From the NCBI GenBank assembly GCA_036726225.1, contig DAIMCS010000002.1:3994-67993 (forward strand): a stretch of DNA of 64,000 bases, given 5' to 3'. Shown piece by piece: positions 1,917 through 60,714 of the stretch. The translations under genes and the position numbers were made by a program. The stretch is from Patescibacteria group bacterium (GTDB lineage: Bacteria; Patescibacteriota; Doudnabacteria; UBA920). A model generated the notes under the pieces. The model was not told where the DNA came from. It did no database searches and saw nothing but the letters and a program-made list of their open reading frames with translations. Numbering within the stretch: the first letter of the stretch is position 1; every line of letters starts with the position of its first letter.

Positions 1917-2600
1917 TTAAATGATTTCTTCTCTTTCAATTTTTTTAAATTGCCCCAAAGGTAAACTTTCGGGCAATTTTAATTTGTTTATGCGTATTCG
2001 CTTAAGGGCGGTTACGGTAAGGCCGACAGCGGCGAGCATCCTTCTTATTTGCCTTTTTTTACCCTCGTGAATAGTAATTCGGAGTTTGCCGTCCCGCTGT
2101 TTCACCTGCGCAGGGTAAGTGGTGCCGCTGGAAATTTCCACGCCGGTCCTTAAATTTTCCATTTGGCTTTCATTGGGCTCTTCCTGGGTTTGGATTTCAT
2201 ATTCTTTTTCGTGCTCAAATTTTGGGTGCGCAAGCGCCTGCGTAAGCTCGCCGTCATTGGTTAAAATAAGCAAGCCTTCGGTGTCAAAATCAAGCCTGCC
2301 TACATTCCAAACTTTTTCTCGTAAATTTTCAGGCAGCAAATCGAAAACTGTTCTCCTTCTTGTGGGGTCGCTTTTGCTGACCACGTAGCCTTGCGGCTTA
2401 TTCATTGCAATATAAATTTTTTCATCTTGAGGTTTAACAATTTTTCCGTAGACTTTTACCACGTCATTTTCCGGGTCAACTTTGTCGCCCAGCTTTGCTT
2501 TTTTGCCATTAATAAACACCTGGCCGGATTTTATGAATTCTTCGGCCTTCCTGCGGCTGGCAACGCCGGCACTGGATATGAATTTCTGGACTCTTTCCAT
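1917..2600 (-). CDS. Pseudouridine synthase, RsuA/RluB family (S4 domain plus catalytic domain)
   Basis: N-terminal S4 RNA-binding motif (VQKFISSAGVASRRKAEEFIKSGQVFINGKK) and a PUS catalytic core (GRLDFDTEGLLILTNDGEL). 227 aa is typical of RsuA. Confidence 0.8.
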   Translation of the reverse strand: MERVQKFISSAGVASRRKAEEFIKSGQVFINGKKAKLGDKVDPENDVVKVYGKIVKPQDEKIYIAMNKPQGYVVSKSDPTRRRTVFDLLPENLREKVWNVGRLDFDTEGLLILTNDGELTQALAHPKFEHEKEYEIQTQEEPNESQMENLRTGVEISSGTTYPAQVKQRDGKLRITIHEGKKRQIRRMLAAVGLTVTALKRIRINKLKLPESLPLGQFKKIEREEII

Positions 2601-2741
2601 AGAATTAGATCCCTCGTCCCGATTTCATCGGGACTCGGGACGACAGCTAAAAATAAATAATTATTGTTTGTCGTTTTTTAAACCCGTTCTTGCATATCTA
2701 ATATCATATATTATTTGGCCATTTTGTGCTATAATAAGGGT

Positions 2742-3278
2742 ATGTTTAACAAGAAAAATCTTCCGCTGGCCATTGCGCTGGCAATCCCGCTGTTAATGAT
2801 AGCCTTAGTCGCGGCGTTTATTTATTTGCCGGGAATTGGCAAAAAGCCGCAGTACAATTTTTTGTATATAACAGGCAATACTTACTTATATACTTACAAT
2901 AAGGGACAGTATTTTGTAAGCGGGGACAAACTAGTCCATAACCCGGCGCCGGTCCAAAATGGGTTGCAAAGCTCTGTGTCTTCCACAATTAGGGCAGAGG
3001 ACCAGCAGTCACATTTTTATATTTACAATGTCGCCCAAAATACTGCAACCGAGCTGACTTTTGAGCAAACCCAAAGTTACAGGCTTGACCCGGGCAATAC
3101 TTCGCCCGACGGTTATAGGGTTGAGCGGGGCAGTTCCGGCGGCGGTATATTTTTTGGCGGCTCCTACGATTACAACAGCTGGTATATAAAAGGGCACAAC
3201 CGAAGCTGGAGACTTAATTTGAAATTAACCGGCCAGGATTATTACAATATGCAGTTTTTGGGTTGGGTAATAAATTAA
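2742..3278 (+). CDS. Hypothetical membrane-anchored/secreted protein
   Basis: Internal ATG at 2742 follows an aaggg SD. N-terminal TM (LPLAIALAIPLLMIALVAAFIYL). No recognisable domain. Confidence 0.4.
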   Translation: MFNKKNLPLAIALAIPLLMIALVAAFIYLPGIGKKPQYNFLYITGNTYLYTYNKGQYFVSGDKLVHNPAPVQNGLQSSVSSTIRAEDQQSHFYIYNVAQNTATELTFEQTQSYRLDPGNTSPDGYRVERGSSGGGIFFGGSYDYNSWYIKGHNRSWRLNLKLTGQDYYNMQFLGWVIN

Positions 3279-3295: not shown

Positions 3296-3338
3296 CCCCT
3301 CCCTTGAGGGGAGGGGTTAGGGGAGGGTGATGAGAGGT
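3296..3338. repeat. GC-rich palindromic element (family member)
   Basis: cccctcccttgaggggaggggttaggggagggtgat has the same termini and hairpin (cccctccc/ggggaggg) as the elements at 5275, 5330, 59644 and 60298. Confidence 0.7.
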
Positions 3339-5274: not shown

Positions 5275-5310
5275 CCCCTCCCTTGATGGGAGGGGCTAGG
5301 GGAGGGTGAT
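5275..5310. repeat. GC-rich palindromic element
   Basis: cccctcccttgatgggaggggctaggggagggtgat. Confidence 0.7.
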
Positions 5311-5329: not shown

Positions 5330-5364
5330 CCCCTCCCTAACCCTCCCCACAAGGGGGAGGGAAT
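5330..5364. repeat. GC-rich palindromic element
   Basis: cccctccctaaccctccccacaagggggagggaat. Same ends as the unit at 60299..60345. Confidence 0.7.
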
Positions 5365-5392: not shown

Positions 5393-6415
5393 TCATTTTT
5401 TATTATGGAATTTTTTGTGAATGTCCCTAAGACCCTGGTTGGTTATGTGGGTGTAAATTTGTGTAGTGGTAATGCTGGCATGCCCCAGTAAAGTTTGCAC
5501 GCTTCTAATGTCCGCCCCGTTTTGCAGCAAATCGGTTGCAAAAGAGTGGCGCAAAGTGTGAGGCGTAACTTTTTTAACAATACCTGCCAGCCGGCAGTAT
5601 TTTTTTATAATTCTTTGAATTTGCCTGGGAGTCAGGCCTAAAATTTTTCGGTCGTCTTTTGTGCCGGAGGCGGATCGGCCTTTGGCGGAATTTTTTACTT
5701 TCGCTCCCTGGCTTTGAATTTGTTTTTCCACGCTTTGGCCAACTGTGGAATGGCCAACAAATAGGGCATTGCTGTTGTCAGGCCTTTTGCTTAAATATTT
5801 TTTAATTGTTTCCGCAGCTTCGTCACTTAAAAAAACTAAACGCAGTTTGCTGCCTTTGCCGCGAACCGTAAATTCTCTGCGGTCTAAATTTATGGAATCG
5901 CGCCTTAGCGAAGCAAGTTCGGAAACGCGCAGGCCTGTGGAAAACAATGTTTGCAAAATTGCGCGGTCGCGCAACTTTGAAAGTTCATCCTTTTCTGCAT
6001 TTGTTGCTTCAAAAAGTCTTTCTAATTCTTCTTTTTCCAAAAACTCCACCTGGCGTTGGGGGTTTTTTGGCAGTTCAATTTTTTCCGGAGACAAAGTTTT
6101 AACATCATTTTTTATTAAATATTTTAAAAACGCCCGCAAAGCAATTAAATGGTAGTTTTGAGTAATTAACTTAAGCTGGTTGCCACGCTCATCTGTTTGC
6201 CGGTTTAAAAACAGCCGGTATTTGTTTATGCTCTGCAAATCAATACCTTTGGGGTCTTTTATATTTAAGCTTTGGGCAAAGGAAAAAAACTTACGCAAAT
6301 AACGCTCGTAAGCCTTAATGGTGTTTAAACTTTGGTTTTTGCCAATTTCGCAGTATTCCAAAAAAGCGCTTATGTAGCTATATAACGGCGAATCTATTTT
6401 TTGTTTGCTGTCCAT
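5393..6415 (-). CDS. Tyrosine site-specific recombinase (XerC/XerD / phage-integrase family)
   Basis: N-terminal core-binding domain and C-terminal catalytic motifs (HTLRHSFATDLLQNGADIRSVQTLLGHASITTTQIYTHI). Lies next to two tRNA-Arg genes. Confidence 0.8.
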   Translation of the reverse strand: MDSKQKIDSPLYSYISAFLEYCEIGKNQSLNTIKAYERYLRKFFSFAQSLNIKDPKGIDLQSINKYRLFLNRQTDERGNQLKLITQNYHLIALRAFLKYLIKNDVKTLSPEKIELPKNPQRQVEFLEKEELERLFEATNAEKDELSKLRDRAILQTLFSTGLRVSELASLRRDSINLDRREFTVRGKGSKLRLVFLSDEAAETIKKYLSKRPDNSNALFVGHSTVGQSVEKQIQSQGAKVKNSAKGRSASGTKDDRKILGLTPRQIQRIIKKYCRLAGIVKKVTPHTLRHSFATDLLQNGADIRSVQTLLGHASITTTQIYTHITNQGLRDIHKKFHNKK

Positions 6416-9376: not shown

Positions 9377-10626
9377 AGAAACTTTTTTATTTACCATTGT
9401 GTCAAATGTCAAGACTTGACCCTGTGTTTCCTCCCTGATCTACTCATTCCGAATTGCTGAGTTAGATTCTGCAACTTTTCCATAGCTGTAGGCCTGACTA
9501 TCAGAACAAGGGGTCAAGTCTTGACATTTTACATTTTGCATAACCCATCAACCTTCTCAATTAAACGTTTAATTGCCTTATCTTTTTCTGCCTGCACGCA
9601 CAGCCTTTTAACCGTTTGCGATATAGAAGAATAATGCAAACCATTAAACTGTTCGGCTATTTGTTTTAGGCTAAGGTAAGTATAATGCTTTAAAGCGTAA
9701 ATGATAAGCTTCTTTTCGAGCTTGCGCTCTAGCTTGAGCCTGGTAATTACGGCTGTTATCCCTTCCAGAGTTTTAGTCCTTTGGACAAGTTTTAGGCTAG
9801 GAATCTCAGGATCTGTTTTATTACCTAAATAATCTTCTTGAATTTTAGAGACAAAGTCGCTATTTCCAAGAATTATACCTTTGTAAGCTTCTTTTTCAGG
9901 CCTAAAGTCTTGTTCTTCAGACTCAAACATAAATTCTTTAAATGCTTTAATGGCTTTTCTCTTGGATTTATGGAACTGCGAAAGCAAAAAATCAGTTTTT
10001 AAAAATACAGGCATTTCTGCTTTGCCAATATATGCGGGATAGCTGGAAAATTGATATTCTTCCAGCTGTTTTACAATCTTTGCCTTAAGCGGGTTTAAAT
10101 GAATGTATTTAGACAGTTGTAAAGAATAGCTGTCTTGGTCAACTAAAGTGGCTTTATACCTGCCTTGGAATAGAGGCCCTACTCTTTTGCGGCGCTTGTT
10201 GAATTTTAAAGTGTAGATGCCGTCCAACTGCCTCATAATTTTAGACAGCTGGCCGTTGGGAGTTTCAATATATAGGTGGTAATGGTTAGACATTAGGCAG
10301 TAACAATGAACCCAAAGGCCATACTTTTCGTGCAAATGTTTCAGCAGAAAAAAGAAATATTCTCTATCCTTAGAATCCCTAAATATTTCTCTTCGTTCAA
10401 GGCCACGATTGATTACGTGGTAAAACGCACCTGGATATTCAATTCTAAGAGGTCTGGCCATGCTAATTTACCGTTATTTGGCCAGTTTAATTTAATTAAG
10501 ATTGTTGTCAATGGATAACTTAAAAATACAAGCCTAATCTATTGTTTTAACTTAAATGTTTATTCTTACTGACAGTAAGAAACTTTTTTATTTACCATTG
10601 TGTCAAATGTCAAGACTTGACCCTGT
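9377..10626 (-). mobile_element. IS200/IS605-like or REPtron-type unit: HUH Y1 transposase flanked by ~49-bp direct repeats carrying REP-like hairpins
   Basis: Near-identical 49-bp segments (gaaactttttatttaccattgtgtcaaatgtcaagacttgaccctgt) at 9377..9425 and 10579..10626 bracket the transposase gene. An inverted copy of the hairpin lies at 9511..9530. Confidence 0.65.
9529..10461 (-). CDS. Y1 HUH transposase (IS200 TnpA / REP-associated tyrosine transposase) with a C-terminal DnaA-domain-IV-like HTH
   Basis: YHVINRG...HCYCLMSNHYHLYIETP (HuH motif) and a downstream catalytic-Tyr region. The C-terminal tail SLKQIAEQFNGLHYSSISQTVKRL resembles the DnaA C-terminal HTH. Confidence 0.8.
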   Translation of the reverse strand: MARPLRIEYPGAFYHVINRGLERREIFRDSKDREYFFFLLKHLHEKYGLWVHCYCLMSNHYHLYIETPNGQLSKIMRQLDGIYTLKFNKRRKRVGPLFQGRYKATLVDQDSYSLQLSKYIHLNPLKAKIVKQLEEYQFSSYPAYIGKAEMPVFLKTDFLLSQFHKSKRKAIKAFKEFMFESEEQDFRPEKEAYKGIILGNSDFVSKIQEDYLGNKTDPEIPSLKLVQRTKTLEGITAVITRLKLERKLEKKLIIYALKHYTYLSLKQIAEQFNGLHYSSISQTVKRLCVQAEKDKAIKRLIEKVDGLCKM

Positions 10627-10739: not shown

Positions 10740-11213
10740 TTATTTATTAGACTTATAGGAACTGGGTACCGAAGCTTCTTCGAAGTCAAATTTGTCTTTA
10801 TTCTTTTTTACTTCTTCTGCCAACAAATTTCCAATCATATTTGGGTCTACTTCTGATGGCACATCAATGGTTACAAAATTTTCAACTACACCGCTAGTTT
10901 CAGTACCGCAGCCAAGAGCATTAATTCTTTTTATTACTGAATTTGTATAATCACCTTTTTCATCCTCAAACACTTTAAACCTAAATGTACTATGGCCGCT
11001 AAACTTTATAGTTTTATCGTACATTAATAAACCATCAGGTGCAGGGGTCGCACTTACTATATCACCCCAACTAACACCAAAGACTCCGAAAGGAATATTT
11101 CTAATTTCATACTCATTTTCGGAGAGTTTTTCTGCAAACATTGTTTCTGTATGAGACCCTAAAAGCGAATCTTCTACATGAAAACCTATTTTTACCAAAT
11201 TATCATTGTTCAT
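10740..11213 (-). CDS. Putative immunity protein for the adjacent orphan Rhs-CT (HNH-like) cassette
   Basis: Small ORF immediately downstream of, and co-directional with, the toxin cassette 11245..12579. No known domain; assigned from position only. Confidence 0.4.
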   Translation of the reverse strand: MNNDNLVKIGFHVEDSLLGSHTETMFAEKLSENEYEIRNIPFGVFGVSWGDIVSATPAPDGLLMYDKTIKFSGHSTFRFKVFEDEKGDYTNSVIKRINALGCGTETSGVVENFVTIDVPSEVDPNMIGNLLAEEVKKNKDKFDFEEASVPSSYKSNK

Positions 11214-11244: not shown

Positions 11245-12579
11245 TTATGGCCAAGATGAAAACGGGTTGATATATTTATTTAGTGGGTTATTTGGGCTGT
11301 TTTTAAACTGCTCCTCAGACTGGGCACCCTTCTTTAAATTACAATCCCTACACTTCACGGAATCATTTTGAGGTGAGTTGTCTCCCCCCGCTTTACGCGA
11401 AGTCTTATGATCGTGATTCTTTTCATCCGGTGAAGGAGATTTCCCTTTTTCTGGCTTTCCGGGCTCTGTGACTTCTTTACCACAGTTGTCACATTTCAAC
11501 TTTCCATCATTTCTAGCTCTATTTTCTTCTTCTGTCTTTTCCTTGGTCTTATTTGAAAACTTACCTCCCGGCAAATATTTTTCTAAAGCAATTCCAGTAG
11601 AAGTCTGTGGCGTGGACATTAATGAAGCTGGTGTACTTTGATTTCCGATTGAATCAGGACCAGCTAAAGTCCATCTAATACCATAATACGCCCCAACTGT
11701 GCCGCCAACAACTATGGTTGCTCCCCCTAATACATATGCACCGACAATTACTTCACCACCGAGAGCAGCGCCTCCTCCACCAAATACCAATGTGCCTGCT
11801 GCAGCGTTTTCTCCAGTCGGATCAGTATTCACAATTGGGTTGTTTCTAGCATAACTATAACTATTCCACTGCTGAGGGTCTTGAAGATACTCATCTGGAG
11901 TTTCCCAGAACATAGGATCCTGACTTATAAACTTCGCATTTGTGCCATTGAAATAACGGCTATTCATGTAGGTCAAAGAACTGGTTGGGTCATACTCGTG
12001 TCCGCTAATACCTTTTCTTTGTTCGTTGAATCCAGTTTGTTCATCTATCCTAAAAGTACCGTAGGGATATGTATCGACAATTTGGACCACGGCGCCAGCA
12101 TCTGAGGTCGAGACATTTGCTCCACCGAGATGATCAACATGCACGTAACTTACTGTGGTAGAAGTACCCGTTCCAACTACAGTAGCAATAAGTGTGCCGT
12201 CTGGTAAGAATATATGTTTAGTTGGAACGCTTCCGGTTATATTATATTCCTTCGTTGGATAATAAGTAGTAACTGAGGATGTGGTAGCGACTGTCATCTT
12301 CACACGCTGACCCCAGGGATCATAGCTAAAAGTACTGGTGGCCGTCGTTGAAGTAGCCTGAGTCAGTCTATTGTTGTAATCCCAAGTGTAAGATACAGCT
12401 GGGGTACTGGTTCCTATTCTTTGGGTGAGTAGGTTTCCATTGTTATCATATGTATAAGCATAGGCGCTACCCGCTGTAGTGGTCGCTACAGCATGGGGAT
12501 TCAAATAAGCAGGGGTATTTGTAGCATAGGTATACGTAGTGGTAGTGGACAAGCCGACATCTACTCCAGATTTTAGCAA
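11245..12579 (-). CDS. Orphan Rhs C-terminal cassette (terminal YD repeats + Rhs core end + variable toxin tip with an HNH-like Cys/His motif)
   Basis: Shares TTTYTYATNTPAYLNPHAVATT...RYFNGTNAKFISQDP...NNPIVNTDPTG with the C-terminal part of the 2654-aa Rhs. The divergent tip contains CDNCGK...NHDH...CRDCN. Confidence 0.75.
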   Translation of the reverse strand: MLKSGVDVGLSTTTTYTYATNTPAYLNPHAVATTTAGSAYAYTYDNNGNLLTQRIGTSTPAVSYTWDYNNRLTQATSTTATSTFSYDPWGQRVKMTVATTSSVTTYYPTKEYNITGSVPTKHIFLPDGTLIATVVGTGTSTTVSYVHVDHLGGANVSTSDAGAVVQIVDTYPYGTFRIDEQTGFNEQRKGISGHEYDPTSSLTYMNSRYFNGTNAKFISQDPMFWETPDEYLQDPQQWNSYSYARNNPIVNTDPTGENAAAGTLVFGGGGAALGGEVIVGAYVLGGATIVVGGTVGAYYGIRWTLAGPDSIGNQSTPASLMSTPQTSTGIALEKYLPGGKFSNKTKEKTEEENRARNDGKLKCDNCGKEVTEPGKPEKGKSPSPDEKNHDHKTSRKAGGDNSPQNDSVKCRDCNLKKGAQSEEQFKNSPNNPLNKYINPFSSWP

Positions 12580-16069: not shown

Positions 16070-16501
16070 TTAGAGGTCTTTAAAAATTTCAGAATCATAT
16101 TCACCTATTGATACCATTACCTGAACATCATCCAATGTGCCACAGTCAAAATATTGATGGAAATCATCACCATCTTTAGCAGAAGCAAAAATATCAAGCT
16201 CATTGATAAATTGTTCAAATTCTTTAGCACCCAAACCCCATTCAAATAAACTATCGTTAATTTTTTTCATACCCGTTACATCAGGAAGAACTTTTAACAG
16301 TACATCGACGTTGGATTTTATAAACATCGGTATTCCTCCAAAATTTACACTTGTTCCGGGTCTTCCTGCATAATCCTTTAATAGATCTCTAAATGAAGCG
16401 AAAGCTAAGGGACTTCCGGAAAACAATAATGTATCTGCGCTTTTAAAATTCTTAAAAAAACCAAAGTAAATTTTATTATCTTGTTTGTTCATATTTATCA
16501 T
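16070..16501 (-). CDS. Putative cognate immunity protein of the full-length Rhs toxin
   Basis: Its start codon overlaps the Rhs stop (ATGA at 16498..16501), implying translational coupling. No known domain. Confidence 0.5.
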   Translation of the reverse strand: MINMNKQDNKIYFGFFKNFKSADTLLFSGSPLAFASFRDLLKDYAGRPGTSVNFGGIPMFIKSNVDVLLKVLPDVTGMKKINDSLFEWGLGAKEFEQFINELDIFASAKDGDDFHQYFDCGTLDDVQVMVSIGEYDSEIFKDL

Positions 16502-19500
16502 TTTTTAGGTGTATTAGAGGACGGATTGTTTTTAAGAGGAGAATCATTACCAATTGGAACATTTCTCCACTCATTTCCCTGTTTTCCATCTGGACCCGGT
16601 GGTTGACCAGGTTTATGAGGATTATAGTCCCAATGAGGATTATGGCGCTCATCACCGGGGAAATATCTCCATTCGCCTCCTTTAGAATCCCAATAACTCT
16701 TCCCTCCTTCCTTTCCTTCAGAAGGACGACTAGCGGGACCCACTTTTAATTCTCCTGGATTTTCTACTGGTGGCGCGACACCGTCAGGTGCCAAACCTCT
16801 GGGAGTCTCAATCTTATCATTTGATTGGTCTGCAGGCATTATTGGCCCTATAAAAGGTTGGGGGGTCATCGCTTCTCTTTCAGCGTCTGTAATTGCTGGT
16901 GCATTAGCTGTACGGGGAAATACCAATACGCCTATTGCCGCGCCTATGCCTAGAGCAGTCGCGGATATTCCCGAAAGGATACCTGCCCCAATTTTAGCAA
17001 ATGGCATAGCAAGTGTGGCGGCGTTACCAGTTGGATCAGTATTGACGATTGGGTTATTTAAAGCATAGCTATAGGTATTTAAGTTTTGAGGATTAGATAA
17101 GTATTCCTTTAGTTGCTGGTTAGTCATTTCTCTTAACTGACGACTATCGCCCATAGCCAAAAACGCGGGATCTTGGGATATAAATTTTGCGTTCGCACCA
17201 TTGAAATAACGGCTGTTCATGTAGGTCAAAGAACTGGTTGGATCATACTCATGACCGCTGATTCCTTTTCTTTGTTCGTTGAACCCGTTTTGCTCATCTA
17301 ATCTGAAAGTACCATAAGGGTACGTATCAACAAGTTGGACTACTTCTCCGGAATCTGAGGTGGAGACGTTTGGTCCGCCAAGATGGTCGGTATGGATGTA
17401 ACTAACAGTTGTGGAAGTGCCGGTTCCAACTATGGTAGCTATCATGGTGCCGTCTGGTAAGAATATATGTTTGGTAGGAACACTTCCAGTTATATTGTAT
17501 TCTTTTGTCGGATAGTAAGTTGTAGCGCTGGATGTTGTCGCAACGGTCATTTTGACCCTCTGGCCCCAGGGGTCATAGGAATATGTACTGGTCGCATTAT
17601 TACCAAGAGCCTGCGTCAGCCTGTTGTTATAGTCCCATGTGTAAGAAGCTTGGGTGGATGTCCCTATCGCAGTAGAGGTTAAATTACCATTGTTATCATA
17701 GGTAAAGCTAGTGCTGGTTGCGACAGTAGTCGTGGCCACAGCGTGAGGATTCAAGTAAGCAGCCGTTCCTGTAGCATAGGTATACGTAGTGGTAGTGCCG
17801 TTTTCAACTCGGGTTAATATATTCCCAACACTGCTATAGGTATAACTATAGTTGTAAGGTGTGGTTGAAGCAGCAGTCGTGGAAGCATTGGTTAGCCTGT
17901 TTAAGTCGTCGTAAGAATAGGTAACCACCCTTTCTAAGGTCGTGCTGGCAGATTCCCTTATTTGGGTAATATTGCCGTTGTTATCGTAAGTGTAAGTTAA
18001 GTCCTGAATGGCAGGGCCCGGGGAGGGTGGCACCGGCCAATCACCCGTGTAAAGGTCAGAAATTTCTTCATCTGTCAGAGCGCGGTTAAATATGGAAAAG
18101 TCATCCACAATTCCGTCTGCTTTATTACCACCGTGAATAGCAGCCCCTACAACAGCTCCGGAAACTCCATAAGTTCCGCTCCCTCCACCGCTCACTGAAA
18201 TAGTGCCCAAATAGGTGCCGTTTATATAGGCTTTGGTAGATGAACCGTTATAGGATAAAGTTAGCATACTGAAGTAACTGGTGGGTACGGTTGTACTGTA
18301 AGATACCTGGTTGTCTGATACAGAATTCTTTTGGTAGATATAAAGCAGCTTTGGCGTACCACTGTCGTCGTAGTAGTCTATACGCATATTTACCTTGTCA
18401 GTGTCGGAAAACGCACCACCAAGTTCCCATCTCGCTCCGCCTGTTGGGGCGGCCGGCGGCTTGTACCAGAAATTCAAAGTAAAACCGGAAAGGAAGGAGT
18501 AGCCGTTTGGGTCGTTGGTATTGTTAAGCCATTTGCTGCTGTTAGAGCTACCCATATCCGCGCCATTGTTAAATTTAGCGGAATTGAAGGGTGTACTGCC
18601 ATTGTTCGTAAGGTTGCTGCCGACTGAGGCAGTGGTATTTTCAAGCCGGAAATATTCTTGAATGTTAGGGTCTGTGTAAAGTGAAGTTTCGTAAAGCTCA
18701 ACTGCCGCTGCGTTGGCTGTTTTGGGAGTAAATTGGGCAATAAGAAAACCAAAAGCTTTGCTAACGCCATTTGCAAAAGCGCGATAAATCTTGGACAAAA
18801 CCCCTTCCTCTTGAATTTCCTGAGGCAAAACTTCTTCCGGTTGTGGTGTGAGCTGCGATTCGGGCGTAGTTAAATTTGTAGGCTGGGGTGTAATTATTTC
18901 AGGGCTGGTTGTAGCCTCGACAACTTCAGGAACAGGCATTACGGGTTCTTCTAAAACACTTCCCTGTGTTGAGGTTGGAGTCGCTTCTTCCTCTTGTGAG
19001 GAAGTGGATGTTGCGGTGTTATTTTCAGCGGCCGGAGCCTGGTCTATTAAGTTTTCGGGCGTGTCGCTGGCAATATATTCTGGCGGTGGGTCTGCGACTA
19101 TTACTTCGGCTTTGCCTAGAGTCTCTTTTTGTTTTAATTCTTCTTCCTCTTTTATTTTTTCATCTTCATTATTAGGCAAGAGCTCTGGAGTTGCTTCTTC
19201 GTCAACAATGGCCGGTTCTTGAACTTGACCTAAGCTCTCTTGGGCATCCATTTGGGATTCTTCCTGTCCTGACTCTCCCTCACCAAACATCATAGATTCT
19301 TCTGAGGGCAGCCTTGTAACTTTTTGCTGCAGCCGGTACATATGGGCGACATCGTAAGTGTTTGTAGTAATAGCCCCATTGGCAAAAGTAATTACAGTGG
19401 GTTGTTCTAGAGGTGAGTAATCGTAACTGCTGACTACATCTGTATAAGAGCCGTCTGTGCTTTCTTTTCTTTGAACCTGGTCTAAAAGTCCCGCGCTGTT

Positions 19501-22500
19501 GTAAATATATTTAACCTGCGAGCTGTCAGGATTAGTTATGGTTAACCGGTTCCCGGCTCGGTCGTAAGTATAGGAAGTTGTGTAGCTGCTGCCCGTTATG
19601 ATTTTTACCTCCTGCGTAAGCTGACCTAAGGCGTTGTAGGTGTTGGTAAGGTTTACTGTCGTGGAGGAAGCCGTGCATAAACGCCCTTTGCCCTGGGTGC
19701 AGGAATCGTAGGTGTAGGTAACTTCTGTGCCACCGCTAGTGCCGGTGTGATCTTCCGTGAGTTGGCGATTAATGTCGTCGTAAGTGTAGTTAATGGTTTG
19801 AGACTTAGGGTCAATTTTTTGCGTAAGATTGCCCGCGTCGTCGTAGGTGTAAGTATAGGTGCCGTAAGTGGCGTCTGACGGCGAGTGCAAGTCTTGGGCA
19901 GTAAGTCTTCTGCCTAAACCGTCATAAGTAAAGCTTCGGGTGCTGCTGGCAGAATCCGTAATAGTTAAAAGATTACCCAAATAGTCGTAAGTGTAAGCGG
20001 TTGGGTGGATGGAAGCGCCGTTGCGCTCATCTACCTGTTTTAAATTACCATAGGCATCGCTATGTAAATCTTTAAGTTTGCCGTTGGGGTCTGTGACGGT
20101 AGTTTTCCAATCCTGAAAAGCTGTAGTGGTGGTGCCGTTGGCATTGGTGGTTGTTCCCACCCGGTATAAAGCGTCGTAAGTATAGTTTATAAATAAGGCA
20201 GATGTGGAAGTCGCGGTCGTGCTGGCTAAGCCGGACGAAAAATAAGGCAAAGATTCTTTTTGCAAAGAACCAATGTTATTGTAAACATAATCTTTAACAG
20301 AATAGTTGCTGCCTTCCGCCTCTTTGCGCTCCTGCTTTTTTCTGCCCAAGCCGTCCAGATATAAGTAGCTGTCTGTACTCGTGCTGGTGTCTAAGTAGAC
20401 TGACTTTTTTACGCTAAATGAACTGGTGGCGTTAGTGTAAGTAAAAGTTACTGCGGTCAGTAAAGTGGAAGTGGCGCTCGGGTCCGGCTGTTTTTGTTCA
20501 ATTACCCGGTCTAAGCCGTCGTACACATTTACAAAAATGTTTCCGTTTGGGTCTGTTGTGGTGGCAATTTTACCCGAAGAATAGTCGTAAGTCAGCTGAG
20601 TTGCCTGGCTAAGCGGGTTTAAAACCGTTGCGGGATAAAGATTAAAGCTGTCGTAGGTGTAAGTTGTAGTTTTGTCCCTTGGGTCTTTTTCCGAAGTAAC
20701 CAGACCGTAAGCGTTGTAAGTTTTTTCAATATCAACATAGGTAGAACTTGCCTTCCACATTTCTTGCTTGGTCAAATTTCCCTTATTTACAAGTCCTAAG
20801 TTTAAACTGTCATAATAATATTTATTCTCCTTAACTTTAGTGCTCCCGTTGTTAACTGTGGATTCAGTTGCCAATAAACTCATGGCAGAGGTCGTTGAAC
20901 TTGTGGCGTATGTATAAGTGGTGGTAAAATCGTCTGTTCCGGAATCGCTGAAGGTGCCGTCATCGCTGCCGGTTACTTCCCCATATTCAATTTTTTGGGT
21001 AATATTGCCTTTAGAATTGTTATAAGTGTAGCTTTCGGCTTTGTCCTTGTGGCTTGCGTCGCCGTCGTAAGTAAATTCCACTGTTTGGGCAAGCTTAACA
21101 AAGCCTGCCAGACCGTTAGCAGTGGTTGTTGCGCTATCCCATTTGTTAATTGTCTTTTTGAATAAGTTACTGTTTGCGTTGTATTGTTCAACCCTGTAAG
21201 GCTTGCCGATTTTAAAATAGTTGTCAGAAAATTCGCCGGTGGAGGTGGCGCTTGTGTTGCCCTGATGAAAAAAGGTTTTGGTCACATTTCCGGCCGCGTC
21301 GGTCTTGTCTACCTGGTTAAAGCCAGCAAAGCGCCTGTCAAAAGGACCGTTGAAATAATACTTGCCTCCACTGTAAGTAAAAGATTCTGCTGTACTGGTT
21401 GCTCCGTTTTCGCTTGTGGTAATTTGACTTACAGTCTGAACAATTAAGGGTAAGGTATTTAACTGAGTAGTGCTGGCATAATATTGGGAGGATGGTTTGT
21501 AGCTAATTTCGGTTTTACCGCCTGTTGGGTAAGTGATTCGGGTAAGTACATCTACCGGTTTTATATTGTTAACATTACTGCCTGATATATCATTAAAATA
21601 ATAAAAAGAATCGGCTAAGCCATTTCCATCTAAATCTCCGATTAATGAATGAGTGTAATGTGGTACGGAGTTATCGCTAAACTGGGCATAGCTTCCGTCG
21701 CCAATATCATCACTCCAACCATTACCTGTGTTTAAATAAGTTCTACGCGTCAGTTCGCCATCCCGTAAAGACTGGTTAATATCGGGTAAACCATCACCAT
21801 TGTACTCAAATACTCTTACGCCGTCATCGCCCCAGGTAGTTTGCAAATTTAGGGGTGGGGCGTAGCGAGAATAGCTATCCCAAGTGCTTGAGCTGTTGTT
21901 TATGTAAGCTTGTTTTTCGCTGCTACTGCCATCGTGGTAACCTCGTAAAAAGTCTGTTAATGTGTCCCCATTTAAATCAGCATTTATTCTTCCGCTTTTC
22001 GGGACTAACGGAAGAGTCCAGCTATTGCTTTGGGTCCAACCTTGACCGTTGTTTAAATAGACATGGTAATAAACAAAAGCCCCGTCTTCTAACATCCTAA
22101 AAATGTCCGGTAAACTGTCACCGTTAATATCACCAATTTCAGCGAACCTCTGATTACCCACGTTGGTAGTACCGTCTGAAAAGGACAAAAGAGGATTCCA
22201 GGTAGAACTGGCGGTCCAGCCTGCACCGGTATTTAAATAGGCTGCGCCTCCATAAGCATTGCTGGCACTAAGCATATCTTCCAATCCATCTCCGTTAACA
22301 TCCGCCATCCTGACACCCAAATCACACCACGGGTCTGTACAGCTACCTCCGTAAGCATAAAAATCGATAGGAGGCTGGTAAGTACTGGTGGCCGTAAAAA
22401 TACTTTGACCATTGTTTAACCACGCAACCCGTGTGGAACTCGCGCTTTGGTCTTTTGCCGCGTACATAATGTCAGTAAAACCATCCCCGTTAATGTCGCT

Positions 22501-24462
22501 GGCTATGGCGTAGTTTAAAGCGCTAGGCGGAGTGAAACTGGCATTACTAGACCAGCCCCCTTGTCGGGCTTGATAAGTAAATAGCGTTGAAGGCAAGCTC
22601 GTAGTACTGCCGTTATCGTCAATGCCGTTTTCGGTAACGCCGCTTAAAAGAGACCTGTAACCATTGTCACCGGTTGTGTAACTAAGAGAATATTTTTTAT
22701 GTAAACTTGTATCCTTCTTAATGTTTATTTCTTTTATACGTGAATTGGTTACTACTTGAAAACCAGTTTTTGTAGATGTAGAAGTGTCTGTCCTCGTTTC
22801 CCGGTTAAATTCAATATTATATAGAGGTGTGCTCGTGGTATTGCCGGCGTAATAAATGTTGGAAGGATAAATTTGAGAGCCGGATTTATAATAGCCGTAC
22901 TTTATTTGGTTACCATTGGTGTCCAGAACTCTGTCTAACAGCCATTTATAAATACGGCTTGGATTTTGCGGGTCTGCAAGTGTTGGTGATACACTTTGCC
23001 CCGACCCGCCGGACGGATATAGACTAAGGACTTCAGAACCACTTAAGTTTCTGTTAAAAGCAGCAACATCGTCTACAATGCCGCTGGCTTTGTTGCCTCC
23101 GTGGATTGCAGCGCCGACAACATAGCCTGAAGCTCCATAAGTCCCGCTTCCGCCCCCACTGGCCGACACATTTCCAACGTCAACCCCATTCATATAACCG
23201 CGCAGAGTAGAGCCGTTATACGTTACGGTCAGCATTGTAAAAATGCTGGTTGGCAGCGTGGTGGCATAAGTAACAGCAGTATCAGACACCCCTGTTTTTT
23301 GGTATATAAACTGTACTTTAGGAGTTCCGCTGTCATCAAAGTAGTCTATGCGAATATTTACTTTGTCAGTATCGGAAAATGCTCCGCCTAACTCCCATCT
23401 TGCGCTCCCGGTTGGTGAAGACGGGGGTTTGTACCACAGGTTTAAACTAAAGCCGCTTAAAAATGAATCCGAGTTTGGGTCCCGGCTATTCGTTAAATAA
23501 CGAGTTGAGTTACTAAAACCAAAATCAGAGCCATTGGCAAACTGTCCCGGGTTAAAAGGTGTTGAGCCGTTATTGGTCAGGTTATTACCAATTGTGGCAG
23601 ACGTGTTTTCGAGCCTAAAATATTGTTTTAAATTCGCGTCGTTGTAAAGCGAAGTTGAATACAATTCCACCGGCAAGCTTGCTTCAGGGTCACCAAAATA
23701 AAACCGGTTTCCTTTTTTGTCCGTAGCAGTCCAAACATTATTAGAAAAGACATAATTTAAAAATTCGCCGTTGTCTACTCTTGAAACATAAGTCGTGCTG
23801 GCGGTTGTGCTGGCAACAAGCTCGCCTGACAAAGACGAACTGAAATAACTCGTTGTGGAAATATTATTGTAGATGTTGTTAAGGCCGCTTTTATTTAATC
23901 TTTCAATATAAGGTATATTAATGCCCCAACCGGCGCCAAATTGGGAATCTATTTCTTTACTGTTTTGGCTGTTGTATTGAAGTTTTAAATCGGGCTGAAA
24001 GCCGTTGCGTCCGGGAGGCACAGCAATGGGGTATTCAGTCAGCAAAGAACCGCTGCTTTCATCGGCGTGGACAGGGGAAGCGGGTTTATAACCGGTTTCA
24101 ATTCTCGGATCCGGGTCCGAAGAGTCTAATAGCATTTCCGGTGGGGGTTCTTCGCTTTCGAGCTGTTGGTCAATCTGGCCGCTTTCTTCCGTAGGCTGTA
24201 GTTGTTCTTGGGGTAAAGGGTTAGGTTCGGGTGTGGGGGTAATTAATTCCGTTTCAGGCGTTGTTGTATTGTTCGATTCTAAGGAGGGGATAGTTGTAGT
24301 TGTTTGTGCAAAAGCGGAGGCTAAGGGAGTGAATAAAAAAGAAAAAGCTAACAAAATTGCTGTTAGCTTTTTAACTGCGTTAAATTTTAATACTTCAAAA
24401 AAGTCTTCTATAGAGGGCCCGGGAGCTTCGGGAAAGAGTTTTGTAATTTGATTCTCTTTCAT
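16498..24462 (-). CDS. Giant Rhs/YD-repeat polymorphic toxin (2654 aa): signal-like N-terminus, LamG-like domain, FG-GAP/VCBS-like repeats, YD repeats, P/E-rich linker, second LamG + YD-repeat/Rhs core, C-terminal toxin tip
   Basis: Numerous YD repeats (YTYDALYRV, YTYDYLGNL, FTYDGLGRRL, YTYDDAGNL). FG-GAP-like DINGDGFTDI/DVNGDGLEDM motifs. Rhs core end RYFNGANAKFISQDP...NLNTYSYALNNPIVNTDPTG followed by a ~210-aa unique tip. The LamG-like block (WELGGAFSDTDKVN...GIVDDVAAFNR) occurs twice. Confidence 0.85.
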   Translation of the reverse strand: MKENQITKLFPEAPGPSIEDFFEVLKFNAVKKLTAILLAFSFLFTPLASAFAQTTTTIPSLESNNTTTPETELITPTPEPNPLPQEQLQPTEESGQIDQQLESEEPPPEMLLDSSDPDPRIETGYKPASPVHADESSGSLLTEYPIAVPPGRNGFQPDLKLQYNSQNSKEIDSQFGAGWGINIPYIERLNKSGLNNIYNNISTTSYFSSSLSGELVASTTASTTYVSRVDNGEFLNYVFSNNVWTATDKKGNRFYFGDPEASLPVELYSTSLYNDANLKQYFRLENTSATIGNNLTNNGSTPFNPGQFANGSDFGFSNSTRYLTNSRDPNSDSFLSGFSLNLWYKPPSSPTGSARWELGGAFSDTDKVNIRIDYFDDSGTPKVQFIYQKTGVSDTAVTYATTLPTSIFTMLTVTYNGSTLRGYMNGVDVGNVSASGGGSGTYGASGYVVGAAIHGGNKASGIVDDVAAFNRNLSGSEVLSLYPSGGSGQSVSPTLADPQNPSRIYKWLLDRVLDTNGNQIKYGYYKSGSQIYPSNIYYAGNTTSTPLYNIEFNRETRTDTSTSTKTGFQVVTNSRIKEINIKKDTSLHKKYSLSYTTGDNGYRSLLSGVTENGIDDNGSTTSLPSTLFTYQARQGGWSSNASFTPPSALNYAIASDINGDGFTDIMYAAKDQSASSTRVAWLNNGQSIFTATSTYQPPIDFYAYGGSCTDPWCDLGVRMADVNGDGLEDMLSASNAYGGAAYLNTGAGWTASSTWNPLLSFSDGTTNVGNQRFAEIGDINGDSLPDIFRMLEDGAFVYYHVYLNNGQGWTQSNSWTLPLVPKSGRINADLNGDTLTDFLRGYHDGSSSEKQAYINNSSSTWDSYSRYAPPLNLQTTWGDDGVRVFEYNGDGLPDINQSLRDGELTRRTYLNTGNGWSDDIGDGSYAQFSDNSVPHYTHSLIGDLDGNGLADSFYYFNDISGSNVNNIKPVDVLTRITYPTGGKTEISYKPSSQYYASTTQLNTLPLIVQTVSQITTSENGATSTAESFTYSGGKYYFNGPFDRRFAGFNQVDKTDAAGNVTKTFFHQGNTSATSTGEFSDNYFKIGKPYRVEQYNANSNLFKKTINKWDSATTTANGLAGFVKLAQTVEFTYDGDASHKDKAESYTYNNSKGNITQKIEYGEVTGSDDGTFSDSGTDDFTTTYTYATSSTTSAMSLLATESTVNNGSTKVKENKYYYDSLNLGLVNKGNLTKQEMWKASSTYVDIEKTYNAYGLVTSEKDPRDKTTTYTYDSFNLYPATVLNPLSQATQLTYDYSSGKIATTTDPNGNIFVNVYDGLDRVIEQKQPDPSATSTLLTAVTFTYTNATSSFSVKKSVYLDTSTSTDSYLYLDGLGRKKQERKEAEGSNYSVKDYVYNNIGSLQKESLPYFSSGLASTTATSTSALFINYTYDALYRVGTTTNANGTTTTAFQDWKTTVTDPNGKLKDLHSDAYGNLKQVDERNGASIHPTAYTYDYLGNLLTITDSASSTRSFTYDGLGRRLTAQDLHSPSDATYGTYTYTYDDAGNLTQKIDPKSQTINYTYDDINRQLTEDHTGTSGGTEVTYTYDSCTQGKGRLCTASSTTVNLTNTYNALGQLTQEVKIITGSSYTTSYTYDRAGNRLTITNPDSSQVKYIYNSAGLLDQVQRKESTDGSYTDVVSSYDYSPLEQPTVITFANGAITTNTYDVAHMYRLQQKVTRLPSEESMMFGEGESGQEESQMDAQESLGQVQEPAIVDEEATPELLPNNEDEKIKEEEELKQKETLGKAEVIVADPPPEYIASDTPENLIDQAPAAENNTATSTSSQEEEATPTSTQGSVLEEPVMPVPEVVEATTSPEIITPQPTNLTTPESQLTPQPEEVLPQEIQEEGVLSKIYRAFANGVSKAFGFLIAQFTPKTANAAAVELYETSLYTDPNIQEYFRLENTTASVGSNLTNNGSTPFNSAKFNNGADMGSSNSSKWLNNTNDPNGYSFLSGFTLNFWYKPPAAPTGGARWELGGAFSDTDKVNMRIDYYDDSGTPKLLYIYQKNSVSDNQVSYSTTVPTSYFSMLTLSYNGSSTKAYINGTYLGTISVSGGGSGTYGVSGAVVGAAIHGGNKADGIVDDFSIFNRALTDEEISDLYTGDWPVPPSPGPAIQDLTYTYDNNGNITQIRESASTTLERVVTYSYDDLNRLTNASTTAASTTPYNYSYTYSSVGNILTRVENGTTTTYTYATGTAAYLNPHAVATTTVATSTSFTYDNNGNLTSTAIGTSTQASYTWDYNNRLTQALGNNATSTYSYDPWGQRVKMTVATTSSATTYYPTKEYNITGSVPTKHIFLPDGTMIATIVGTGTSTTVSYIHTDHLGGPNVSTSDSGEVVQLVDTYPYGTFRLDEQNGFNEQRKGISGHEYDPTSSLTYMNSRYFNGANAKFISQDPAFLAMGDSRQLREMTNQQLKEYLSNPQNLNTYSYALNNPIVNTDPTGNAATLAMPFAKIGAGILSGISATALGIGAAIGVLVFPRTANAPAITDAEREAMTPQPFIGPIMPADQSNDKIETPRGLAPDGVAPPVENPGELKVGPASRPSEGKEGGKSYWDSKGGEWRYFPGDERHNPHWDYNPHKPGQPPGPDGKQGNEWRNVPIGNDSPLKNNPSSNTPKK

Positions 24463-55965: not shown

Positions 55966-57141
55966 ATGTCATATTTTGAAATTCTAAAAAAAGATCCGGC
56001 ATCAGCAGCAAGAGCCGGGGTAATTCATACGGCGCACGGCGACATTAGCACGCCGGCGTTTTTGCCAATTGGTACCAAAGGCGCTATAAAATCCGTTACA
56101 TCCGAGGAGTTAAAGTTTTGGGGAGCGCAAATAATTTTGGCCAATACATACCATTTGTGGCAGCGGCCCGGGGACGCGCTAATTTACAAAGCCGGAGGCT
56201 TGCACAAATTTATGAACTGGCAGGGGCCAATTTTTACGGACAGCGGCGGTTTCCAGGTTTTTAGCTTGGCTAAAATGCGTAAAGTTATGGAAGCAGGGGT
56301 AACTTTTCAGTTCGACTTAGACGGCAGAACTGAAATTTTGTCACCGGAAAAGTCAGTCCAAATCCAGGCAAATTTAGGCAGTGACATTGCTTTAATTTTG
56401 GACGATTTTCCCGGATATCCTTTTGAATATGAACGGTCAAAGGAATCCATTGGGCTCACCAAAAGATGGGCCCAGCGCGCGGTTAAAGAACATAAAAAAA
56501 TAATGGAGTTTGGCGACCCTATAAACCAGGGCCAGAAATTGTGGGGGATTGTGCAAGGGGCTTCTTTTCCCGATTTACGCGAAAAATCCGCTCGCGATAT
56601 GGTGGATTTTGGCTTTGAAGGTTTTGCCATTGGCGGCGTGGCAGTAGGCGAGCCGCACACCGAAATGATGAAAGCCGTCTCCTATGCCATTCCCCATTTG
56701 CCCGAAAATTCACCCAAACATTTACTCGGCGTGGGAACGCCGTATGATATTGTGCAGGCTGCTGCTTTGGGCTGTGACACTTTTGACTGTGTCATTCCGA
56801 CGCGCGAGGCAAGGCACGGCAGGTTGTATATAAGTACACAGTATACAGCAGACAGTAATCAGAAAGCGGAAGGGTATTCTACTATTAATATAGACAACGA
56901 AAAGTACAGGGAAGATTTTACGCCCGTAGACAACCAGTGTGATTGTTATTTGTGCCTAAACCACACGAAAGGTTATCTCCGCCATCTTTTTGCCACCGGC
57001 GAGCCTTTGGCAATTCGTTTGGCAACAATGCATAATTTGAAATTTTATTTGCGGCTTATGAAAAAAATCCGCACAGCAATCCAGTATGAGCATTTTGACG
57101 AAATGGTAAAGAGTTATAAGGAAATAGGAAATAGGAGTTAG
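55966..57141 (+). CDS. tgt: Queuine tRNA-ribosyltransferase
   Basis: Canonical TGT motifs including the Zn site CDCYLCLNHTKGYLRHL and DCVIPTREARHGRLY. Confidence 0.9.
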   Translation: MSYFEILKKDPASAARAGVIHTAHGDISTPAFLPIGTKGAIKSVTSEELKFWGAQIILANTYHLWQRPGDALIYKAGGLHKFMNWQGPIFTDSGGFQVFSLAKMRKVMEAGVTFQFDLDGRTEILSPEKSVQIQANLGSDIALILDDFPGYPFEYERSKESIGLTKRWAQRAVKEHKKIMEFGDPINQGQKLWGIVQGASFPDLREKSARDMVDFGFEGFAIGGVAVGEPHTEMMKAVSYAIPHLPENSPKHLLGVGTPYDIVQAAALGCDTFDCVIPTREARHGRLYISTQYTADSNQKAEGYSTINIDNEKYREDFTPVDNQCDCYLCLNHTKGYLRHLFATGEPLAIRLATMHNLKFYLRLMKKIRTAIQYEHFDEMVKSYKEIGNRS

Positions 57142-59520: not shown

Positions 59521-60714
59521 ATGGAAGCTTCCAGGCTTAAAGCACTTCAAAAGACGCTGAACAATCCGATTTTAATTAAGAAAAAAGAAAACCTGCTTTA
59601 TTTAACGGGCAGGAGTTTTATGCACGGGTACTTGCTAATAAAACCCCTCACCCCGGCCCTCTCCCGCAAGGGGAGAGGGGGTGAAGTAGTATTTTTGGGA
59701 GATGGGTTGGAAAAAATTGAAGGCGTAAAGACGGATTTTTTAAAAAATGTGGGAAAATATATTTCAAAAAAAGAAGTTTTGGAAATTTTTGGAGAGTTTA
59801 CTTATGCCGAAGCTAAATATATTAGAGCAAAGAATAAAGATTTAAGATTAAAGATTACAGTCAAGCACGACCCCGTAGACTATCAGCGTGTCATAAAAGA
59901 GCCGGAAGAAATAGAAAATGTGAAAAAGTCCATGCAAATTGTGGAAAGAGTTTTTAAATTGGTAAGAGGCAAACTGAAGGACACGGACGGGAAACGGATT
60001 AACACGGAGATAGGATTGGCAAAATTTATAGAAACATCCGGCTTAAAAATGGGCGCAAATGATTTGGCTTTTCCTGCCATCGTCGCTTCTGGCCCAAACG
60101 CGGCTATTCCTCACCACGTTCCATCTTCCAAAAAAATAAAATCAAACGAATCTATAATTTTAGACTTTGGTTTTAAGTATAAAAATTATTGCTCCGATTT
60201 TACAAGAACAGTATTTTTAAAATCAGCACCCAAAAGATTGGCAGAAGCTTATAACCAAACTGAAAAAGCTTATAATGGATCCATTAAATTCTGTAACACC
60301 CCCTCCCTAACCCTCCCCACGTCGGATGCACTCCGGGGGAGGGAATCTAAGCCTTTCCTCCCCCTTGATGGGGGAGGAATAAAAACCCCCTCTTACAATA
60401 AGAGGGGGTTAGGGGGTGATATTACCGGTAACGATGTTTACCAAAAATCCGTTAGTATTTTAAAAGAAAAACATCTCGAAAAATATTTCATCCATTCCTT
60501 GGGCCACGGGACGGGTTTGGAAATTCACGAACTTCCGAATTTATCACCTAATTCTAAGGATGTGTTAAAAGATAATATGATTTTTAGCATTGAACCCGGA
60601 GTTTATATTCCCAAAGTCGGTGGTATACGCATTGAGGATTTGGTATACTTGCAGGGCGGCAAAGTGAAAAAATTCATTAATATCTCGACTAAGCTAGAAG
60701 ATAATGTCATCTAA
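59521..60714 (+). CDS. M24-family Xaa-Pro aminopeptidase/dipeptidase carrying in-frame GC-rich repeat insertions
   Basis: M24 motifs (IVASGPNAAIPHHVPS, HSLGHGTGLEIHELP, IRIEDLVY). Two GC-rich palindromic elements are embedded in-frame (KPLTPALSRKGRGGE and TPSLTLPTSDALRGRESKPFLPLDGGGIKTPSYNKRGLGGD). Confidence 0.8.
   Translation: MEASRLKALQKTLNNPILIKKKENLLYLTGRSFMHGYLLIKPLTPALSRKGRGGEVVFLGDGLEKIEGVKTDFLKNVGKYISKKEVLEIFGEFTYAEAKYIRAKNKDLRLKITVKHDPVDYQRVIKEPEEIENVKKSMQIVERVFKLVRGKLKDTDGKRINTEIGLAKFIETSGLKMGANDLAFPAIVASGPNAAIPHHVPSSKKIKSNESIILDFGFKYKNYCSDFTRTVFLKSAPKRLAEAYNQTEKAYNGSIKFCNTPSLTLPTSDALRGRESKPFLPLDGGGIKTPSYNKRGLGGDITGNDVYQKSVSILKEKHLEKYFIHSLGHGTGLEIHELPNLSPNSKDVLKDNMIFSIEPGVYIPKVGGIRIEDLVYLQGGKVKKFINISTKLEDNVI
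59644..59686. repeat. GC-rich palindromic element inside a CDS, in-frame
   Basis: cccctcaccccggccctctcccgcaaggggagagggggtgaag, with inverted repeat ccctctcc/ggagaggg. Confidence 0.7.
60298..60419. repeat. Composite GC-rich palindromic element (3 hairpin units) inside a CDS, in-frame
   Basis: Units cccctccctaaccctcccc...gggggagggaat, cctccccc-ttgat-gggggagg and ccccctctt-acaat-aagaggggg. The first unit matches 5330..5364. Confidence 0.7.

Follow-up and report, generated by a model that had tools for sequence, protein, structure and literature searches.

GC-rich hairpin repeats within the reading frame of an M24 peptidase gene from candidate Doudnabacteria: resemblance to REP sequences and Rickettsia palindromic elements

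Rickettsia palindromic elements (RPEs) are about 100–150 bp long, encode a family-specific conserved peptide and are confined to Rickettsia (PMC10969869); a CGTC tag has been reported for some of their families (PMC3733652). Intragenic repetitive extragenic palindromic sequences (REPs) bearing GTAG/CGTC tags are found in ‘O. terrae’, Thauera and R. conorii, where dimers encode 20–30 amino acids and clusters 43–82 (PMC3733652). Miniature transposable elements with inverted repeats (MITEs) such as ERIC, the Coxiella QMITE and the Anabaena MITEs can also create in-frame fusions (PMC10969869). Here we describe short GC-rich hairpin elements in a 64-kb stretch of contig DAIMCS010000002.1 from candidate Doudnabacteria (the whole stretch is called the window below), two loci of which lie in frame within the gene of an M24 family Xaa-Pro peptidase. 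With a probability of about 0.72, comparative data suggest that these are REP/RPE-like hairpin repeats with recurrent insertion, whose copies undergo translation and persist in permissive loops only.

The elements resemble RPEs in being palindromic repeats that occur between genes and in frame in unrelated housekeeping genes (PMC10969869, PMC3733652), in being apparently translated as extra peptide segments at fold-compatible positions, and in having no obvious transposase of their own. They differ from RPEs, which we compared by description, in that the units here are 35–49 nt long, untagged, read in several frames, of several unrelated sequence types and from another phylum. REP, BIME and REPIN sequences are imperfect GC-rich palindromes of 20–40 nt, mostly downstream of open reading frames (ORFs) (PMC3733652, PMC2817692); the elements share this layout, as well as frequent inverted doublets and clusters, occasional copies in ORFs and a RAYT-like gene in the window. 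In contrast to REPs and REPINs, they have no GTAG/CGTC tag, the RAYT-like gene is flanked by another repeat (GGGTCAAGTCTTGAC), ORFs hold about half of the copies found outside M24, and more than 100 orthologs have their inserts at one recurring set of loops. Like MITEs, they appear to be non-autonomous repeats able to sit in ORFs without breaking them, but MITEs are 70–300 bp long and have terminal inverted repeats (15–30 bp) and target-site duplications, neither of which is seen in the elements.

Hairpin elements in the window

A preliminary description of this DNA had placed GC-rich palindromes at 3296, 5275, 5330, 59644 and 60298. All five loci are present, the composite at the last of them ending at 60420, and together they hold seven units of 35–49 nt in the 64 kb. 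The units and their host gene are as follows.

Element A, 3296..3331, + strand: intergenic, sequence CCCCTCCCTTGAGGGGAGGGGTTAGGGGAGGGTGAT, 18 nt past the stop of ORF 2715..3278
Element B, 5275..5310, + strand: intergenic, near copy of A (2 of 36 positions differ), first half of an inverted doublet
Element C, 5330..5364, − strand: intergenic, the A/B design inverted
M24 family Xaa-Pro peptidase gene, 59521..60714, + strand: 397 amino acids, ORF intact, PF00557 with E 6e-50
Element D at hot spot 1, 59644..59685, + strand: 42 nt or 14 codons, begins at a codon boundary, reads PLTPALSRKGRGGE
Hot spot 3 patch, 59980..60009, + strand: non-palindromic direct repeat ACACGGA..ACACGGA, reads DTDGKRINTE versus KPGMTE in insert-free orthologs
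Site-2 composite, 60298..60420, + strand: 123 nt or 41 codons, three hairpins E1, E2 and E3
E1, 60298..60346, + strand: C-like design with C block, TAA and a hairpin with a 17-nt loop
E2, 60347..60384, + strand: middle hairpin TTCCTCCCCC TTGAT GGGGGAGGAA, 10-bp stem, RNA z −3.96
E3, 60385..60420, + strand: CCCCCTCTT..AAGAGGGGG TTA GGGGGTGAT, reads TPSYNKRGLGGD

The GC content of the window is ~43% on average (34–51% in 2-kb windows). That of the elements is 0.50–0.74, against 0.353 in the remainder of the M24 gene, with 0.74 for the D stretch (59644–59685, 42 nt) and 0.58 for the site-2 stretch (60298–60420, 123 nt). In the design common to A, B and C, a short loop separates a C-rich arm from a G-rich arm, and a spacer of three bases then leads to a repeat of the G-rich arm that ends in TGAT. 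In A, the hairpin CCCCTCCC/GGGAGGGG is followed by a TTA spacer, a second G block and the TGAT tail. D is a nested hairpin, TCACC..CCCTCTCCC GCAA GGGAGAGGG..GGTGA, which takes the place of a K-N-x turn in insert-free orthologs. The preliminary description treated all of these as one family. D has the design and the GGGGGTGA tail in common with the other elements but differs in arm sequence, and the elements are better read as a loose superfamily. The motif GGGGAGGG occurs in 8 copies in the window where 1.47 are expected, a number reached by 0 of 100 shuffles.

The B–C doublet, directly downstream of a XerC/D-like recombinase gene (5393..6415, − strand), is REPIN-like and folds into three stems in which the G tail of B pairs with the C head of C (DNA z −3.5). 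The site-2 composite likewise folds into several stems, its two ends pairing together, with folding energies of −76.9 (RNA, z −7.1) and −40.9 kcal/mol (DNA, z −7.0). The anatomy of both is REPIN-like in that the third block pairs with the partner element. Single units gave z values of −0.8 to −4.0, which are weak alone because the shuffles preserve G/C runs. Searches of Rfam at the gathering threshold (whole window) and at E ≤ 1 (element regions) returned tRNAs and chance hairpin matches only; those over the B–C region (5273–5363) were chance miRNA-hairpin matches.

No terminal CGTC is visible in the element sequences, the only CGTC being in the E1 loop, and none of A, B, C, D and E1–E3 has a visible GTAG/CGTC end tag; the shared end is GGG(G)TGAT or GGGAAT. 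Membership in the RPE and REP families fails on the defining features, namely the size and peptide of RPEs, the GTAG/CGTC tag, and a RAYT with the same repeat. The elements are better described as untagged REP/REPIN-like hairpins with RPE-like behaviour. The comparison with selfish, in-frame RPEs drawn in the preliminary description is supported for behaviour only, the elements being much shorter than RPEs and without a visible terminal CGTC tag.

The patch at hot spot 3 is a third repeat-derived segment of the M24 gene, which the preliminary description had missed beside the two palindromic ones. It is common to the closest relatives L124 and L132, and no further repeats of its RINTD-type motif were found in the window (2 matches versus 2.8 expected).

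At 2614–2643, just upstream of a pseudouridine synthase gene (1917..2600, − strand), the stretch TCGTCCCGA-TTTCA-TCGGGAC-TCGGGACGA has the same layout of arm, loop, arm and repeated arm in another sequence. The G-rich strands of A and B (3308–3327 and 5288–5306) contain four G runs with loops of 1, 3 and 1 nt (GGGG A GGGG TTA GGGG A GGG). We take this to be a canonical G-quadruplex motif, whose folding would compete with that of the hairpin. The G-quadruplex was rejected as a general explanation, because four G runs are present in A and B but not in D, E2 or E3. GGAGG(G)TGAT also bears a likeness to a Shine-Dalgarno sequence, but the 31 nt between A and the next start codon do not fit such a role.

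The M24 gene and its orthologs

The M24 protein was compared with 120 relatives (52–70% identity, 298–414 amino acids), whose full-length insert-free forms have about 342–347 amino acids. Since the gene order glycyl-tRNA synthetase – small ORF – M24 – small ORF – M16 peptidase is kept in every fetched locus, the relatives are orthologs. Syntenic orthologs without inserts exist: the L126 protein (343 amino acids) is insert-free at every site (‘YLLIK-KNQVVF’, ‘SIQYITL-GKNAGDAY’), the L130 protein has no insert at site 1, and insert-free members occur in both M24 subclades. Extensions were found at site 1 (after query residue 42) in 60 of 119 orthologs, at site 3 (residues 153–161) in 26 of 119 and at site 4 (near residue 108) in a minority; at site 2 (residues 260–300) the insert columns are occupied in 77 of 120. 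PDB prolidases match the M24 protein at E about 1e-39, and prolidases and aminopeptidases P of the PDB align with it in two blocks, with 22 residues where the query has 61 at site 2. The solved relatives are therefore without about 40 residues at this site, and the alignments argue, as the preliminary description had supposed, that the segments are insertions rather than ancestral sequence.

Residues D215, D226, H329, E358 and E372, which we take to be the M24 metal ligands, are invariant in the 108 sequences of the M24 alignment. According to the preliminary description both inserts fall between catalytic blocks. This is true of the second, which lies between D226 and H329, but not of the first, which lies in the N-terminal domain. 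An AlphaFold model built from the 108 sequences (mean pLDDT, the predicted local distance difference test score, 88.7) places site 1 between strands 36–40 and 56–60, site 3 between helices 128–154 and 163–176, and site 2 between helices 238–259 and 303–315. The site-2 insert has a pLDDT of 41–54 versus about 95 on either side. In the model, the insertion sites are predicted to be loops between secondary-structure elements, compatible with the fold, and the 41-residue insert is predicted to be disordered, which agrees with the loop position considered in the preliminary description.

Repeats other than those of the query are found at these four loops in most of the remaining orthologs. At the DNA level, the occupants are GC-rich repeats of several unrelated types.

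D type: CCCCTCACCCC..CCCTCTCCC..GGGAGAGGG
E3 type: CCCCCTCTTATTATAAGAGGGGGTTAGGGGGTGAT
Long palindromes, translated as LRG..TKQS..LLRSARND
Direct repeats of ACACGGAT (..RINTD..) or CGCGGAA (..RKHAE..)
Small palindromes, translated as SAGHRPA

The D element at site 1 is read as PLTPALSRKGRG in the query and in P0028, P0039, P0053, P0068 and P0080 (PLTP[AT]LS.KGRG), and as SPRPSPRGRG in frame +1 in P0010, P0011 and P0034. The same second frame is used in the AP-endonuclease gene of L208, where D is read as PSPQPSPARGEGV. The two M24 subclades, of the ‘MHGYLL’ and ‘DYRAEEYLL’ types, both contain D. Near-identical E3 copies occupy the same position in the L208, L209 and L210 orthologs, and the L136 ortholog has the same hairpin. 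The closest relative found, L132 (77% identity), has the query's patch at site 3, while its elements at sites 1 and 2 are different ones. L125, L127 and L130 have a homologous site-2 composite in common, and some inserts were thus inherited vertically for a while.

A neighbour-joining tree of this single protein (119 orthologs, 310 core columns) gave parsimony counts that are rough but show an extreme scatter. Presence or absence requires a minimum of 28 changes for site 1 and of 33 for site 2, and for the individual element types the tips and changes number 6/6, 3/3, 17/16, 8/8, 8/7 and 19/18, so that the types appear to be scattered almost randomly over the ortholog tree. The identities of the elements and of the host gene in the same genome pairs are given below.

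E3 element: overall identity 78–100%, third codon positions 67–100%
D element: overall identity 76–81%, third codon positions 71–79%
289 core codons, same genome pairs: overall identity 63–74%, third codon positions 43–57%

In the pairs used for the D comparison, the core codons are 63–68% identical, versus 76–81% for D. Given this higher conservation of element DNA, the copies must either have arisen much later than the genes or be under constraint in their nucleotide sequence. Both alternatives point to an entity at the nucleic-acid level, and the reading of D in different frames and genes argues for a DNA-level element, not a protein module. The comparative data appear to establish repeated gain and loss at few loops, filtering for frame and stop codons, and conservation at the nucleotide level.

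The segments might instead be ancestral, fast-evolving variable loops, whose palindromic and GC-rich look is a by-product of low-complexity Pro/Gly/Arg coding. The same loops do vary in most of the 120 orthologs, L125, L127 and L130 share their site-2 composite, and some distant orthologs have the same peptide at the same place (PLTP[AT]LS.KGRG at site 1 and SPSYYKRGLGGD at site 2), which the preliminary description would have taken as a sign of ancestry. Yet the shared segments do not appear to be ancestral, because they are scattered on the tree (6 tips with 6 changes and 8 tips with 7 changes), because two reading frames occur at the same loop and because conservation is far higher in element DNA than at the synonymous sites of the host gene, which are saturated, with the third codon positions 67–100% identical in elements versus 43–57% in the core. 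The insert-free orthologs of both subclades and the presence of identical elements in intergenic DNA and in other genes, in other frames, argue in the same direction. Descent from ancestral loops is largely refuted by these data and we consider it very unlikely.

Another explanation for the conserved nucleotides is that the hairpins are kept because they work as RNA or DNA, for instance by marking a site of pausing, processing or protein binding or by regulating translation of the peptidase. Besides the conservation itself, it would account for the very stable stems and for the loops, which contain GCAA in D copies and CTTG or TTCG in matches from other phyla. GCAA, CTTG and TTCG loops are classes of unusually stable RNA tetraloops. 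TTG, which was not required by the search pattern, is found in the loop of 68 of 148 cross-phyla matches versus about 14 expected, and intergenic copies lie just downstream of ORFs, as with REPs. However, many orthologs have no insert at all, close relatives have unrelated element types in one and the same loop, as would hardly be expected of a gene-specific function, and no Rfam family matches. A function of this kind is in our opinion unlikely.

All 17 full M24 genes that were read as DNA, 12 of which were retrieved independently of gene calls, are open across all inserts; the metagenome scan for M24 yielded at least about 21 close orthologs among the 80 loci listed. The query conforms to this pattern, as the preliminary description had stated, with an ORF (59521..60714) of 397 amino acids that stays open through inserts of 14 and 41 codons. 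The 123-nt composite is open in one of three forward frames, which is the frame used. E3 is also open in one of three forward frames, and that frame is used in all copies, whereas intergenic A and B have stop codons in all three. Trimming of the mRNA or ribosome hopping would free both length and stop codons, and the kept frames therefore speak for translation of the inserts.

Non-translated inserts have precedents. Short GC-rich palindromes have invaded AT-rich protein-coding genes as the GC clusters of yeast mitochondria and as ‘byp’ elements; the GC-rich byps of Magnusiomyces mitochondria and the gap of phage T4 gene 60 are passed over by the ribosome. The M24 inserts, which might likewise be bypassed or else cut from the mRNA, resemble byps in being GC-rich hairpins in an AT-rich gene. 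Byps, however, break the frame and are bypassed, whereas the M24 inserts always keep it: the 17 genes read as DNA and all 120 predicted proteins are in frame through every insert, only stop-free element frames are used, and the sole frameshift, in L145, is located away from the insert sites. The frame data appear to exclude bypass elements, and we find a non-translated insert highly improbable.

An artefact of metagenome assembly or binning, by chimeric joins at repeats or by GC-rich contaminating DNA, could also put such sequences into a gene. Contigs do end or turn chimeric at M24 site 2 in L132, L143 and L150, and L139 ends about 20 codons past it, as expected for dispersed repeats. An artefact is nevertheless extremely improbable, because 19 contigs encode the identical 397-residue protein, and the three of these occurrences that were shown represent three different samples (JGI and ENA). 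Both flanks are the same gene in the same frame, and dozens of independent orthologs show the same phenomenon.

In L150 (771–1200), a long palindrome, CATTGCGAG...CTCGCAATGAC (the LRG..ARND type of other orthologs), comes after a GIY-YIG nuclease gene and is joined straight to the C-terminal M24 half at site 2, the N-terminal half being missing. In L132 (1129–1350), M24 gives way to unrelated DNA directly behind its site-2 element, which is of the SRFRGNDK type. Each of these junctions may be either a real rearrangement at the repeat or an assembly chimera.

Occurrence beyond the M24 gene

A scan of 292 kb from the clade for GC-rich hairpins (stem of at least 8 bp and at least 75% GC) found 50 hairpin clusters, 34 in long ORFs, which make up 79% of the DNA, and 16 outside. 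Half of the genic clusters (17, as counted from the listed clusters) are in M24 and 17 are in other genes; the M24 excess is an ascertainment bias because every locus was chosen for M24. Outside M24, there is a ~3.5-fold intergenic preference per base, yet about half of the copies lie in ORFs. In-frame elements also occur in the genes for queuine tRNA-ribosyltransferase (TGT), AP-endonuclease and TatD and in one unannotated ORF of the size of a tRNA synthetase. The intergenic distribution noted in the preliminary description is thus seen in related genomes too, where the same elements are present in intergenic DNA and other genes.

The TGT orthologs adjoining M24 carry in-frame GC-rich palindromic inserts in L124 (5994–7517), L125 (6467–7766) and L209 (3369–4770), for example SSAEALAKAD, RSLHSPSDALGFGRDDK and SRSAGHPSLAGGE; the TGT gene of the window itself (55966..57141) is without such inserts.

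We also searched one genome per species with an A-type pattern (CCCTCCC, 4–20 nt, GGGAGGG, 3–5 nt, GGGAGGG). The architecture was found in at least 120 genome loci (L001–L120) with a locus GC content of 34–77%, cultured isolates included, and in at least 120 IMG/VR viral contigs (L211–L330). Among the matches listed are Chloroflexota, Planctomycetota, Nitrospirota, Thermodesulfobacteriota, Bacteroidota, Cyanobacteria, Actinomycetota and Firmicutes as well as Alpha-, Beta- and Gammaproteobacteria. Rhizobium cremeum S302 and Sphingomonas mali NBRC 15500 are examples of complete genomes rich in A-type copies. Several matches are almost identical to the window copies, for example CCCCTCCCTTGATGGGAGGGGTTAGGGGAGGGTGA in L082, and inverted doublets are common: among the matches listed, 120 genome loci and 120 viral loci, copies on both strands were seen in 18 and 14, respectively. 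The exact E3-type pattern was not found in the viral contigs, and neither Rfam nor the literature gave a name for the A-type family.

A tentative and rather doubtful extension is that CCCCTCCC-loop-GGGAGGGG-YTR-GGGGAGGG(TGA) represents one widespread unnamed family of ~35 nt, whose consensus is held by a conserved trans-acting enzyme or by horizontal circulation and which inserts at specific protein loops in Patescibacteria. If this were true, loop-targeted elements would be an important and fast-acting cause of variation in length and surface in the otherwise streamlined proteomes of Patescibacteria. On this view, a 35-nt sequence would be kept the same across bacteria that differ by 40% in GC content.

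Proposed mechanism and significance

We propose that short non-autonomous GC-rich hairpin repeats of the REP/REPIN type land in the intergenic DNA of candidate Doudnabacteria and also within housekeeping genes. Judging from the comparison of orthologs, a genic insertion would survive only if the frame is kept, the element frame is stop-free and the loop tolerates extra residues. Surviving copies would be translated as loops rich in Pro/Ser/Leu/Thr and then in Gly/Arg/Glu, which in the query amount to 14 amino acids at site 1 and 41 at site 2. There may be a high flux of insertion with few permissive loops, or occupied loops may attract further copies; either way, different lineages would have seen many rounds of insertion and turnover at the same four M24 loops. 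That the consensus of an element type stays unchanged over long periods would be due to a factor acting on nucleic acid. The most likely one is the specificity of an enzyme that works in trans and copies hairpins in single-stranded form (an HUH/Y1 transposase such as RAYT).

The window contains a candidate for such an enzyme.

RAYT-like Y1 (HUH) transposase gene, 9529..10461, − strand: PF01797 with E 3e-14; NF047646 with 73.9 bits, below the cutoff of 80

The protein has HUH-like (NHYHL) and Tyr (GRYK) motifs and a DnaA-C-like helix-turn-helix tail. Several observations weigh against the proposed course of events, and two of them concern this gene. It is bracketed by a different hairpin, GGGTCAAGTCTTGAC, in 4 copies at 8614, 9408, 9511 (inverted) and 10609. 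This repeat is unrelated to the GC-rich element family; two copies sit within roughly 48-nt direct repeats, and the arrangement (8614–10623) is REPtron-like. In addition, no RAYT homolog was found in 330 fetched loci (2.78 Mb), about 240 of which had been picked around A-type elements. GGGTCAAGTCTTGAC itself was not found in 210 fetched loci. As the RAYT-like gene has its own flanking repeat and no homolog in the fetched loci, no link to the GC-rich elements was found, and it is at best an indirect lead.

The remaining points against the proposal are of a comparative nature. The 90% cluster of the query protein is one sequence, and close strains show no polymorphism for presence or absence. 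At the junctions read against insert-free orthologs, where 2–3 host codons are replaced, neither a target-site duplication nor a shared flanking motif was found. The higher conservation of the elements could reflect selection on a hairpin RNA or DNA function within the gene, and translation of the inserts is deduced from frame conservation only. The parsimony counts come from a one-protein neighbour-joining tree, and the genic/intergenic census is approximate and M24-biased, some of the ORF hairpins being ordinary coding sequence.

A minus-strand cluster of RHS-repeat proteins (11245–24462) includes an ORF of 2654 amino acids (16498..24462) and a 444-residue protein with a weak C-terminal HNH nuclease match (11245..12579), and is adjoined by a DUF4265 protein (10740..11213); it looks like a polymorphic-toxin locus. 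Two divergently oriented paralogs with a C39-like peptidase domain (PF13529) are located at 123–893 and 1020–1787.

While the principle of in-frame palindromic repeats is known, the phylum seems not to have been described for such elements before. Our literature search turned up neither an account of these elements nor one of in-frame repeats in Patescibacteria, and the element motif is absent from the REP survey PMC3733652. Tolerated selfish DNA in essential-looking genes is unexpected in Patescibacteria because their genomes are very small. For annotation, length differences of 10–20% between orthologs would be repeat insertions and not domain gains, and contigs break at these places. M24 is a natural experiment, with more than 100 orthologs carrying independent inserts at four loops. 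The set could be used to map which loops of pita-bread enzymes tolerate 10–60 extra residues and to time the turnover of short repeats. A specialist may be surprised that four loops are reused in more than 100 orthologs, that the elements are more conserved than their host gene, and that the hairpin architecture is common across phyla.

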